Source: Escherichia coli (GTDB lineage: Bacteria > Pseudomonadota > Gammaproteobacteria > Enterobacterales > Enterobacteriaceae). From it: a stretch of DNA of 64,000 bases. The notes beneath the pieces were generated by a model. That model was not told the DNA's origin. It saw nothing but the letters and a program-made list of their open reading frames with translations, and did not search any database. Where the stretch lies: NCBI RefSeq assembly GCF_003334405.1, contig NZ_QOWM01000002.1; one strand, 5' to 3'. The position numbers were made by a program, and so were the translations under genes. Numbering within the stretch: the first letter of the stretch is position 1; each line of letters begins with the position of its first letter. Shown one piece after another: positions 700 through 3,069 of the stretch.

Positions 700-1392
700 C
701 TAGTGATAACCACGCGCGGTCATAAAATCCGTAATCGCTTTTTCTGCATCAACCAACACCTGTTCCAGTGGCTGATTGGCATCGATATCAACCAGTTGTG
801 CACCACCAAAGGTTAACTGTGGCGTTATGGCAATCTTCCTCGCCAGCGATTCCCGTTTATGGTCGGGTTTACGTGCACAGGCAACTTCAAGGTCAACATT
901 GAGTTTGATGACCAGATCAGGCTTATGGCTCGCCATCCAGTGAAACGCTTTACGTTCCTGGCTTGCCAGCCATGAGACAAAACGACCACCTTCAACGTTA
1001 GGTGGGAACACCGTACCATCGTAAGCGCCAGGAATTTGGTCCTGAGGATAACGGTCGGTTAGAACAATTAACCCGCGACGACGACAGGCAAGCATATGAC
1101 GAAAGCGCAGTAAGCGACGGGCGACAAACGCTGTAATTACCAGCGCCGGAACTGGTCCAGGCAATTTTTTTGCTGTTTTCACCTGATTTCGTTCAATTGT
1201 TTTATGTAAGGATTTTCCCATCAACGGTAATTTTGTCACTGCACGACCGACATTTCCGGCCTGTTTTCCTAAATGAACTCTTTCGGCAGCACCATATTTT
1301 TCGACAACGGTAATAAGATGTTCACACACCGTTGACTTGCCTGAACCATCGCTACCAATAACGGCAATTAATGGAGGTGTTATTGACTGCAT
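700..1392 (-). CDS. yghT: P-loop ATP-binding protein (kinase-like), 230 aa
   Basis: Walker A 'GSDGSGKST', conserved 'RKPDH' motif; paralog of next two genes; K-12 synteny. Confidence 0.8.
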
Positions 1393-1565
1393 GAATATAT
1401 CCTTTAATTTAAATATCCATTAAAAATATTTATTTGGTTAATATGTTTTTATGAAAGCGTAATTCAGGTCAATGTCACAATTAACCATTGTCACAATAAG
1501 GTTGAACGGATATTCTGAGCACGGACCACGTAATATTCAATACATTATTTACTGCCGGGTTTTTC

Positions 1566-2279
1566 GTGAATCAACGTAATATGTCAATAATTAATTCCAC
1601 GCCAGTGCGTGTTATTGCCATTGTAGGATGTGATGGTTCAGGTAAATCGACCCTCACGGCAAGCCTGGTAAATGAACTGGCAGCAAGAATGCCAACAGAA
1701 CACATTTATCTCGGGCAATCGTCCGGGCGAATTGGCGAATGGATTTCACAGCTCCCTGTTATTGGCGCACCTTTTGGGCGTTATCTGCGAAGTAAAGCGG
1801 CACATGTGCACGAAAAGCCCTCAACACCGCCTGGCAATATTACTGCACTGGTTATCTATCTGCTTTCCTGCTGGCGGGCGTACAAGTTTCGCAAAATGTT
1901 GTGTAAAAGCCAGCAAGGCTTTCTGCTCATCACCGACCGCTACCCGCAGGTTGAAGTGCCGGGGTTTCGCTTTGATGGCCCGCAATTGGCAAAAACCACG
2001 GGCGGTAACGGTTGGATAAAAATGTTAAGGCAGCGCGAGCTGAAGCTGTACCAATGGATGGCATCTTATTTGCCCGTATTGTTGATTCGTCTTGGCATTG
2101 ATGAACAAACCGCGTTTGCGCGTAAACCTGACCACCAACTGGCAGCGTTACAGGAAAAAATCGCCGTTACGCCGCAACTGACATTCAATGGCGCAAAGAT
2201 CCTTGAACTGGATGGGCGACACCCCGCCGATGAAATTCTGCAAGCGTCACTACGCGCAATTCACGCCGCGCTTTCCTGA
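1566..2279 (+). CDS. yghS: P-loop ATP-binding protein (kinase-like), 237 aa
   Basis: Walker A 'GCDGSGKST', 'DRYPQ' and 'RKPDH' motifs; GTG start per ORF track. Confidence 0.8.
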   Translation: MNQRNMSIINSTPVRVIAIVGCDGSGKSTLTASLVNELAARMPTEHIYLGQSSGRIGEWISQLPVIGAPFGRYLRSKAAHVHEKPSTPPGNITALVIYLLSCWRAYKFRKMLCKSQQGFLLITDRYPQVEVPGFRFDGPQLAKTTGGNGWIKMLRQRELKLYQWMASYLPVLLIRLGIDEQTAFARKPDHQLAALQEKIAVTPQLTFNGAKILELDGRHPADEILQASLRAIHAALS

Positions 2280-2310
2280 TCACCAAAATGGATAGGGGAT
2301 GATTTAACGA

Positions 2311-3069
2311 ATGGATGCACTACAAACTCAAACTGTTAATAGTACAACCGCGCCGCAGCCCAACTACATTCCGGGGCTGATTGCGGTGGTCGGGTGTGAT
2401 GGCACCGGTAAATCCACACTGACCACCGACCTGGTGAAATCGCTGCAACAACACTGGCAAACCGAGCGGCGCTATCTGGGGCTGCTCTCCGGCGAAGACG
2501 GCGACAAAATCAAACGATTGCCGTTGGTTGGCGTCTGGCTGGAACGGCGACTGGCGGCCAAATCCTCGAAAACCCAAAGCATGAAAACCAAATCTCCGGC
2601 GCTATGGGCGGCGGTGATTATGTACTGCTTCTCGCTGCGAAGAATGGCGAATCTACGCAAGGTTCAGCGACTGGCGCAAAGTGGCGTTCTGGTGGTCAGC
2701 GATCGCTTCCCGCAGGCTGAAATTTCGGGCTTTTATTATGATGGACCGGGGATTGGCGTCGAACGTGCGACCGGGAAAATCAGCATGTTTCTGGCGCAGC
2801 GCGAACGGCGTTTATACCAACAAATGGCGCAATATCGCCCGGAATTAATTATTCGCCTGGGCATTGATATTGAGACTGCCATCTCCCGCAAGCCTGACCA
2901 TGACTATGCCGAGCTGCAGGACAAAATCGGTGTCATGTCGAAGATTGGCTATAACGGCACAAAAATTCTTGAGATTGATTCCAGAGCGCCCTACAGCGAA
3001 GTGCTGGAACAGGCACAGAAGGCGGTTTCTCTGGTTGCCATCGTTTCTGACCGCCGAAGTTTAACTTAA
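2311..3069 (+). CDS. yghR: P-loop ATP-binding protein (kinase-like), 252 aa
   Basis: Walker A 'GCDGTGKST', 'DRFPQ' and 'RKPDH' motifs; third tandem paralog. Confidence 0.8.
   Translation: MDALQTQTVNSTTAPQPNYIPGLIAVVGCDGTGKSTLTTDLVKSLQQHWQTERRYLGLLSGEDGDKIKRLPLVGVWLERRLAAKSSKTQSMKTKSPALWAAVIMYCFSLRRMANLRKVQRLAQSGVLVVSDRFPQAEISGFYYDGPGIGVERATGKISMFLAQRERRLYQQMAQYRPELIIRLGIDIETAISRKPDHDYAELQDKIGVMSKIGYNGTKILEIDSRAPYSEVLEQAQKAVSLVAIVSDRRSLT

Follow-up and report, generated by a model that had tools for sequence, protein, structure and literature searches.

The locus and its three paralogs

The window analysed here is a stretch of 64,000 nucleotides of the Escherichia coli chromosome. Its subject is a set of three neighbouring genes, yghT, yghS and yghR, which encode P-loop proteins and lie beside a flippase gene and genes of ceramide synthesis. 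Over its first 12 kb, the window has 100% identity to strain CFSAN061772 and to many other strains, and at least 80% of this segment is covered by 4063 of 5426 complete E. coli genomes (about three quarters). The RefSeq gene order is pitB, yghT (minus strand), yghS, yghR, yghQ (product name 'lipopolysaccharide biosynthesis protein'), a hypothetical gene, a YtfJ-family gene, lptF and lptG; on the other strand follow spt and the genes of an acyl carrier protein, an epimerase/dehydratase-family protein and a fatty acyl-AMP ligase, and then comes yghO. The open reading frames of yghT, yghS and yghR match the RefSeq coding sequences of the same names in a 100%-identical E. coli chromosome, and the coordinates given for them in the initial annotation are exact. 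The trio, the sequences around it and the two genes that follow are:

661..689, no strand: hairpin between the convergent genes pitB and yghT, 12-bp stem with a T-run after it on the plus strand
700..1392, minus strand: yghT, thymidylate-kinase-fold P-loop protein of the T orthogroup, 230 residues, pI 9.85
1393..1565, no strand: AT-rich divergent promoter region between yghT and yghS, 173 bp, GC about 0.39 against about 0.52 around it
1566..2279, plus strand: yghS, thymidylate-kinase-fold P-loop protein of the S orthogroup, 237 residues, GTG start
2311..3069, plus strand: yghR, thymidylate-kinase-fold P-loop protein of the R orthogroup, 252 residues
3115..4464, plus strand: yghQ, MOP/Wzx-type flippase, 449 residues, with an NCBIfam MOP flippase match
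4464..5288, plus strand: CHAD-fold protein annotated 'hypothetical', 274 residues, no signal peptide, overlapping the yghQ stop codon

The three proteins had been described as paralogs that share three motifs, and this is borne out. Pairwise sequence comparison places the similarity far above chance, with 44% identity between YghS and YghR (E 1e-63), 36% between YghT and YghS (E 2e-53) and 34% between YghT and YghR (E 6e-48). The Walker A motif reads GSDGSGKST in YghT, GCDGSGKST in YghS and GCDGTGKST in YghR; the second motif is DRYPQ in YghT and YghS and DRFPQ in YghR, and RKPDH is found in all three translations. The N-termini have indeed diverged, with 7 (YghT), 15 (YghS) and 22 (YghR) residues before the first strand, and yghT runs opposite to yghS across the 173-bp spacer. 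The adjacency to yghQ and to the ceramide genes spt, acpR, cerR, aasR and yghO is likewise as described. All three proteins are strongly basic (pI 9.6–9.85) and have no transmembrane segment. The segment between the P-loop helix and the DRX strand is very basic, with 11–18 Lys and Arg against 4–6 Asp and Glu.

Age and constraint of the trio

One genome per species was taken, which gave 79 loci rich in Enterobacterales, and thirteen E. coli locus proteins were compared with them by tblastn. Scores separate the T, S and R groups by a clear margin, so that each copy at a locus falls into one of them. This holds for the Enterobacterales, the Xanthomonadales (Rhodanobacter, Luteibacter and Dyella), Halioglobus, the Methylococcaceae, Methylotenera, Nitrotoga, Gallionellaceae, Rhodocyclaceae, Acetobacter and the Sphingomonadales. 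The three orthogroups are thus kept in gamma-, beta- and alphaproteobacteria, with the order S-R-T on one strand in Acetobacter and the Sphingomonadales. Because the orthology holds across these lineages, the triplication predates them, all three copies having been retained.

An alignment of 196 sequences shows 87–100% conservation within each group (YghS numbering) of GxDGxGK(S/T)T, D-R-x-P-Q, the D-G pair, E158, R-K-P-D-H and K198. Within all three groups, 100% of the sequences have the DRX arginine. No member of the trio looks like a dead subunit; the full set of predicted catalytic motifs is present in each.

Fold and family placement

The fold comparison that the initial annotation had called for was run with the YghS model and gives a thymidylate-kinase (TMPK) fold; the P-loop, the DRX motif and the lid are all present on this fold in the trio. 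The second-best structural match of the model is 2plr/5h70 (5h70 has the same sequence as 2plr), a solved homolog of the catalytic subunit of the polyphosphate kinase PPK3 (cPPK3).

The scores against the NCBIfam model TIGR00041 (dTMP kinase) are 25.8 bits for YghT, 24.3 for YghS and 32.3 for YghR, the curated cut-off being 83.25. PRK07933 gives 17–26 bits against a cut-off of 193, and Pfam Thymidylate_kin (PF02223) aligns only fragments at the P-loop and the lid (i-E 0.013–1.8). The segment after DRX, P-Q...G...D-G, is invariant in the trio family and appears to differ from that of canonical Tmk (TIGR00041/PF02223); the TMPK profiles fail to align through it. The insert between the P-loop helix and the DRX strand is about 35 residues longer than in canonical Tmk and is basic, and the surrounding genes concern envelope lipids instead of nucleotides. 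A profile of the family searched against the PDB sequences finds TMPK fragments only, the canonical TMPKs at E 5.7e-5 and 2plr at E 0.43; a PDB sequence search with YghR returned no meaningful match. The trio lies outside the Tmk family, in an uncharacterised branch of the TMPK superfamily. As the TIGR00041 scores are 24–32 bits and the Pfam matches stay at the level of the P-loop, the RefSeq product name 'dTMP kinase' is not supported. E. coli has its own essential tmk elsewhere.

Other kinase and NTPase families were compared. The trio has neither the family signature nor the fold of the PPK2 polyphosphate kinases (PF03976). The DAGK_cat-type fold with a GGDG motif (CpgB type) is absent, the fold being the P-loop TMPK one and no such Pfam match being found. 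The ABC signature, the Q-loop and the H-loop are also missing; ABC models match only a Walker A stretch of 23–36 residues with 15–18 bits against more than 260. PADLOC defence models match over the length of the P-loop only (E 2e-4 or above), and a defence-system role was dropped since none of them has a real match. A role as a BY-kinase (Wzc-like) in a Wzx pathway was rejected on the fold and on the lack of a C-terminal tyrosine cluster.

The 274-residue partner

The gene that overlaps the yghQ stop codon encodes a protein whose predicted structure is confident, long and all-helical. Its best full-length fold matches are CHAD domains, with a Foldseek E value that is not significant. A CHAD domain consists of two four-helix bundles whose conserved basic patches are specific for inorganic polyphosphate as ligand (PMC6537752). 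Among 25 aligned homologs of the 274-residue protein, two similar blocks are invariant, R-x-x-x-K-H-L-R...Q-D and F-H-x-x-R-K...G-x-x-H-D. The first is formed by R88-x3-K92-H93-L-R95 with Q122-D123 and the second by F192-H193-x2-R196-K197 with G234-x2-H237-D238; R88, K92, H93, R95, H105, H193, R196, K197 and H237 are invariant or nearly so. The Pfam CHAD profile matches one of the 25 homologs at 2.6e-5, the other 24 fall below significance, and the E. coli protein has no match. The family profile finds nothing among the PDB sequences, and NCBIfam finds nothing for the protein and five homologs even at E ≤ 1.

We treat the protein, on its modelled structure, as a divergent CHAD-fold protein. 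It has the long all-helical fold in common with the CHAD proteins (PF05235; RcCHAD 6qv5, CtCHAD 3e0s and YgiF); its gene sits in a lipid and flippase operon and not next to PPK, PPX or TTM enzymes. Apparent fusions of 347–701 residues in this family are artefacts of open reading frame extension at GC-rich loci and were excluded.

A conserved five-gene module at sphingolipid loci

The neighbourhood of the trio was counted in 45 species loci that contain all three genes with 10 kb of flank on each side. A YghQ-like MOP flippase is found near the trio in 42 of these loci and a homolog of the 274-residue protein in 39; 44 have one or both. Ceramide synthesis genes are almost as common (Spt in 36, CerR in 36, AcpR in 35, AasR in 32), followed by the YtfJ-family protein (27) and the LptF and LptG paralogs (22). 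None of these neighbours is present at the four loci that carry a single, more distant member of the family.

The gene arrangement varies. In Serratia marcescens, the trio directly adjoins spt-acpR-cerR-aasR in an arrangement unlike that of E. coli, and in Carnimonas (Oceanospirillales) it again adjoins these four genes, in an order unlike E. coli. In the Sphingomonadales, where the ceramide genes are scattered (PMC9386255), the trio is still followed by the flippase (50–57% identity) and the 274-residue gene (33–44%), with no LptF2/G2 nearby. The conserved core is a five-gene module of T, S, R, flippase and 274-residue protein, attached in most lineages to ceramide synthesis and the LptF/G paralogs. 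Since the linkage persists through rearrangements and across three proteobacterial classes, it argues for functional coupling of the module.

The Carnimonas locus has an extra gene of the Asp/Arg-hydroxylase family that the E. coli locus lacks, and the Serratia locus has a phospholipase-like gene followed by two ankyrin-repeat genes. The extra genes of the two loci, among them a DgkA-type lipid kinase gene considered below, are at L002 2279–2644 and 16813–19991 and at L004 11596–12730.

Downstream of the 274-residue gene, the window contains:

5297..5860, plus strand: YtfJ-family protein, TIGR01626 at 212 bits against a cut-off of 151, signal-like N-terminus
5891..6961, plus strand: LptF paralog (LptF2), from the RefSeq annotation
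6958..8037, plus strand: LptG paralog (LptG2), from the RefSeq annotation, last gene of the apparent operon
8072..9244, minus strand: spt, serine palmitoyltransferase (RefSeq); the E. coli B enzyme has been assayed (PMC9386255)
9244..9492, minus strand: acpR, specialised acyl carrier protein (RefSeq locus annotation; PMC9386255)
9524..10438, minus strand: cerR/epi, NAD-dependent reductase of ceramide synthesis (RefSeq locus annotation; PMC9386255)
10435..12123, minus strand: aasR, acyl-AcpR synthetase, RefSeq start used (PMC9386255)
12455..13675, plus strand: open reading frame of yghO, N-acyltransferase of the bacterial ceramide synthase type, 'aca' in PMC9386255

The genes from yghS to lptG are separated by short gaps (31 and 45 bp among them) or overlap, and no convincing terminator is found before a strong hairpin at 8035–8069, directly 3' of lptG2. 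The hairpin at 661–689 on the other side probably acts as a bidirectional terminator. With these boundaries, yghT looks monocistronic, and yghS to lptG2 look like one seven-gene operon headed by yghS and yghR. One sigma-70-like match lies in the yghT/yghS spacer, at 1488–1516 on the plus strand.

The lptF and lptG genes at 5891–8037 are second copies inside the sphingolipid locus, which has no lptB or lptC paralog; they correspond to LptF2/G2 of Caulobacter. The YtfJ-family protein (5297–5860) might serve as a periplasmic partner in place of LptC2. The start codons of two genes are uncertain: the open frame of aasR reaches 12165, giving 576 residues against 562 from the RefSeq start, and that of yghO has 406 residues against 390 in K-12 YghO.

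The wider kinase family and its fusions

An exhaustive search with the family profile collected 2211 representatives of the kinase family at E ≤ 1e-3. Among the best 150 are at least 36 proteins of about 490 residues in which the kinase domain is C-terminal and is preceded by a domain with a D-x-D-h-h-V motif; for this kind of domain, one fusion protein gave a weak Pfam NTP_transf_5 match. Kinship of the 274-residue protein with this nucleotidyltransferase-like domain was rejected (hhalign probability 0.05%).

The representatives also include single-chain fusions of S with R and of T with an R-like domain. These natural fusions suggest that the paralogs act together physically; individual fusions may be gene-calling errors in metagenomes. 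One further representative joins a GT4 glycosyltransferase to the kinase, and another (P0244) is a fusion of MOP flippase, NTP_transf_5 and kinase. From the fusions and the Wzx/Wzy-type contexts of fused relatives, the family belongs to cell-surface glycoconjugate and lipid assembly, with a recurrent tie to MOP flippases.

A gene of about 231–249 residues directly follows the NTP_transf_5-kinase fusion gene in each context examined (L005 8733–9482, L087 9491–10186 and 4196–4906 on the P0244 contig). It has no Pfam match or a faint one to AAA_33 and may be a further conserved partner or paralog. In one representative of 2487 residues (P0126), the kinase profile matches 39 separate short stretches, all P-loop-proximal (profile positions 21–55); this is either a repetitive protein or an assembly artefact.

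Comparison with known systems

Among published systems, PPK3 of Sulfolobus acidocaldarius (Saci_2019/Saci_2020), a heteromeric polyphosphate kinase without dTMP kinase activity (PMC12995831), comes closest to the trio with its CHAD-fold protein. No other pairing of 'thymidylate kinase' paralogs with a CHAD protein has been published. The two PPK3 genes lie side by side, carry the annotation thymidylate kinase and belong to an operon of polyphosphate metabolism with PPX, SixA, CHAD and Pst genes; the regulatory subunit lacks the DRX arginine (PMC12995831). The likeness to E. coli consists of the side-by-side TMPK-fold paralogs, the misannotation as dTMP kinase, the CHAD-type protein in the operon and an apparent lack of conservation of the dTMP-binding residues. 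There are also differences. PPK3 has two paralogs and E. coli three, and the DRX arginine is kept in all three with no regulatory pseudo-subunit evident. The E. coli module has no PPX, SixA or Pst, its neighbours being a MOP flippase, ceramide genes and LptF/G paralogs; pitB, beside the trio, is convergent and behind the terminator hairpin. In sequence, the trio profile is nearer to ordinary TMPKs than to 2plr. On the arginine, the missing polyphosphate genes and the profile, the resemblance to PPK3 falls short of membership.

The spt, acpR and aasR homologs of E. coli B have been characterised biochemically and, with epi and yghO, make up five dihydroceramide genes; the kinases, the flippase and the 274-residue gene are not discussed in that study (PMC9386255). 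In Caulobacter, the corresponding locus combines ceramide genes, a putative flippase, LptC2/F2/G2 and six head-group genes, and yields ceramide (di)phosphoglycerate (PMC11324152). The ceramide kinase CpgB is soluble, has a GGDG motif and is related to sphingosine and diacylglycerol (DAG) kinases; it is not a P-loop protein (PMC10331486). The other head-group proteins are described as CDP-alcohol transferase-like, nucleotidyltransferase-like or phosphoesterase-like (PMC11324152). Sphingolipid export in Caulobacter requires LptF2/G2, whose partner is the housekeeping LptB (bioRxiv 10.64898/2026.04.12.717747). The ceramide-phosphoglycerate system affects polymyxin sensitivity, outer-membrane integrity and virulence.

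The Caulobacter head-group genes (CpgA, CpgB, CpgC and CC_1152/1153/1158) hold the position of the trio in an analogous locus for an anionic sphingolipid. The synthesis and export parts are common to both loci, but the middle part is completely different; in these accounts, none of the Caulobacter head-group proteins is described as a P-loop kinase or a CHAD protein. Homology of the trio to these enzymes was rejected, CpgB being of the GGDG/DAGK type and the others transferase-like.

Proposed function

At the E. coli locus, the candidates for making the head group are limited to the trio and the CHAD-fold protein; NCBIfam and the RefSeq annotation reveal no other plausible head-group enzyme there. 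The initial annotation had read the trio as small-molecule or lipid kinases; the kinase fold and the link to lipids hold, and the key partner, the 274-residue CHAD-fold protein, had been overlooked. We give a probability of roughly 0.45 to the reading that the three proteins are phosphotransferases that make an anionic, phosphate-based head group on ceramide, which YghQ flips and the LptF/G paralogs export. YghT, YghS and YghR would be ATP-dependent (possibly polyphosphate-dependent) enzymes on the cytoplasmic side of the inner membrane, probably acting as a heteromeric assembly. They would place the head group on the ceramide supplied by Spt, AcpR, AasR, CerR and YghO; the product would be ceramide phosphate, possibly extended to a chain of two, three or more phosphates. 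The phosphate or phosphoanhydride moiety would be bound or kept in place by the CHAD-fold protein; once complete, the lipid would be flipped by YghQ and then extracted in the direction of the outer membrane by LptF2G2 acting with the housekeeping LptB. The enterobacterial module would be a counterpart of the unrelated CpgA/B/C-type enzymes that make ceramide phosphoglycerate in Caulobacter. In favour of this reading are the distance from Tmk, the linkage to ceramide genes, the lack of other candidates at the locus, the basic charge of the three proteins and of their acceptor-side insert, the CHAD-fold partner, the PPK3 precedent, the natural fusions and the analogy with Caulobacter LptF2/G2, which export anionic sphingolipids. 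To our knowledge, LpxK is the only P-loop lipid kinase known. It offers a functional analogy only, as a P-loop phosphotransferase whose substrate, an envelope-lipid precursor, is modified on the cytoplasmic side and afterwards flipped and exported by the Lpt system.

Several points weigh against this assignment. TMPK-family enzymes normally act on soluble nucleotides. The trio has no NCBIfam or Pfam match to LpxK, and LpxK is absent from the best 60 fold matches. In the YghS model, the pLDDT is below 50 for residues 52–85, on the acceptor side, so that a lipid-binding pocket cannot be judged. The CHAD assignment is that of a predicted fold and its Foldseek E value is not significant. The linkage to lipid genes is partly shared ancestry in a sample dominated by Enterobacterales, and the Serratia and Carnimonas loci carry a DgkA-type (DAGK_prokar) lipid kinase gene, absent from the E. 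coli locus, that may be the actual ceramide kinase. The searchable literature reports no sphingolipid of E. coli that has a head group of this kind. Of three contexts examined for the NTP_transf_5-fused form, two are Wzx/Wzy-type polysaccharide clusters and the third is not obviously so; these distant polysaccharide-cluster relatives with a nucleotidyltransferase-like domain fit a soluble head-group-donor pathway at least as well.

Such a pathway, in which the trio would be soluble small-molecule kinases that make a head-group donor and never touch the lipid, is unlikely but the likeliest of the alternatives. The kinases would phosphorylate an acid, a nucleotide or a small alcohol, and this product would later be activated and passed on to the lipid or glycan. 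A soluble substrate is the normal chemistry of the TMPK fold. About 36 of the best 150 representatives carry the D-x-D nucleotidyltransferase-like domain, and in polysaccharide clusters the fused relatives have glycosyltransferases, Wzy and a CDP-alcohol transferase as neighbours. Kinase and nucleotidyltransferase pairs such as LicA/LicC resemble these fused relatives. The modules of E. coli, Serratia and the Sphingomonadales, however, contain no nucleotidyltransferase or head-group transferase, and the CHAD-fold partner has no known role in a donor pathway.

In a more specific form of the phosphotransferase reading, which we consider improbable, the three paralogs would add phosphates to ceramide one after another and so make an anchored oligo- or polyphosphate, by way of ceramide phosphate, diphosphate and triphosphate (Cer-P, Cer-PP and Cer-PPP) or longer. 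In a variant, the donor of the phosphate would be polyphosphate. The CHAD-fold protein would keep hold of the phosphoanhydride chain as it grows, and the highly anionic lipid would then reach the cell surface through the Wzx-like YghQ and LptB2F2G2. If this were true, ceramide oligophosphate would be a new class of envelope lipid in most E. coli strains and many other proteobacteria, and the TMPK and CHAD folds would each take on a new role.

The parallel with PPK3 raises an alternative in which the trio serves polyphosphate or energy metabolism, as a polyphosphate kinase like PPK3 or a nucleotide kinase that uses polyphosphate, and has only a loose tie to the lipid genes; we see a small chance of it. 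PPX, SixA and Pst are absent from the module, the DRX arginine missing from the PPK3 regulatory subunit is present in all three paralogs, and in sequence the family profile matches canonical TMPKs better (E 5.7e-5) than it does 2plr (0.43). The tight linkage to the flippase and spt would be left unexplained. E. coli already has PPK1.

There is little chance, in our view, that the trio are NTPases with a regulatory or coupling role, gating the YghQ flippase or the LptF2G2 extractor or supplying either with energy. The constant adjacency to the flippase, the natural flippase-kinase fusion and the lack of an LptB paralog at the sphingolipid locus would suit this. The fold is that of a small-molecule kinase with the DRX acceptor clamp and the lid, though, and the Caulobacter LptF2/G2 bind the housekeeping LptB. 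The trio was rejected as the missing ATPase of LptF2G2 on this LptB use, on the lack of an ABC signature (ABC models match the P-loop stretch only) and on the Sphingomonadales, whose trio has no LptF2/G2 nearby.

That the trio are redundant dTMP or nucleotide kinases for DNA precursors, as the RefSeq names ('dTMP kinase' and 'nucleoside/nucleotide kinase family protein') and the TMPK fold would have it, is very unlikely in view of the 24–32 bits against 83.25, the fragmentary Pfam matches, the P-Q...G...D-G stretch apparently in place of the TMPK nucleobase-binding segment, the conserved synteny with envelope-lipid genes and the PPK3 paralogs, which bear the same annotation and have no dTMPK activity (PMC12995831).

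Expression, K-12 and significance

Expression of yghS rises 3.1-fold on SlyA overexpression, and the gene is marked in the H-NS-regulon column of the same study (PMC5797941). Both observations, made in K-12, fit the AT-rich yghT/yghS spacer (GC about 0.39). The operon is probably silent in the laboratory.

In K-12 MG1655 (NC_000913.3, 3129043–3132408), an IS5 element lies between yghO and a truncated yghQ (355 residues against 449). The deletion associated with it removes the 274-residue gene through aasR and leaves yghRST as orphans. K-12 is a natural deletion mutant for the pathway, and with yghQ truncated and these genes gone, K-12 screens are uninformative on the native pathway. A silkworm-virulence screen of K-12 knockouts listed yghQ, yghR, yghS and yghT, and deletion of yghQ in K-12 gave a two-fold change in the minimum inhibitory concentration of chlorhexidine. 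CFSAN061772 has a different deletion, which leaves a truncated yghO joined to a gspJ remnant (L001 20533–21084).

The searchable literature on the locus covers the five ceramide genes only, with no functional mention of the three kinase genes; it holds no functional studies of yghT, yghS or yghR, of yghQ or yghO with sphingolipids, or of thymidylate-kinase-like proteins with flippases. The unsupported name 'dTMP kinase' has been propagated to thousands of genomes. TMPK-superfamily paralogs and a CHAD-fold protein have been recruited here to a sphingolipid and flippase locus. The five-gene module supplies candidates for the head-group chemistry still missing for sphingolipids of gammaproteobacteria, betaproteobacteria and some sphingomonads, in parallel to the ceramide-phosphoglycerate system of Caulobacter.

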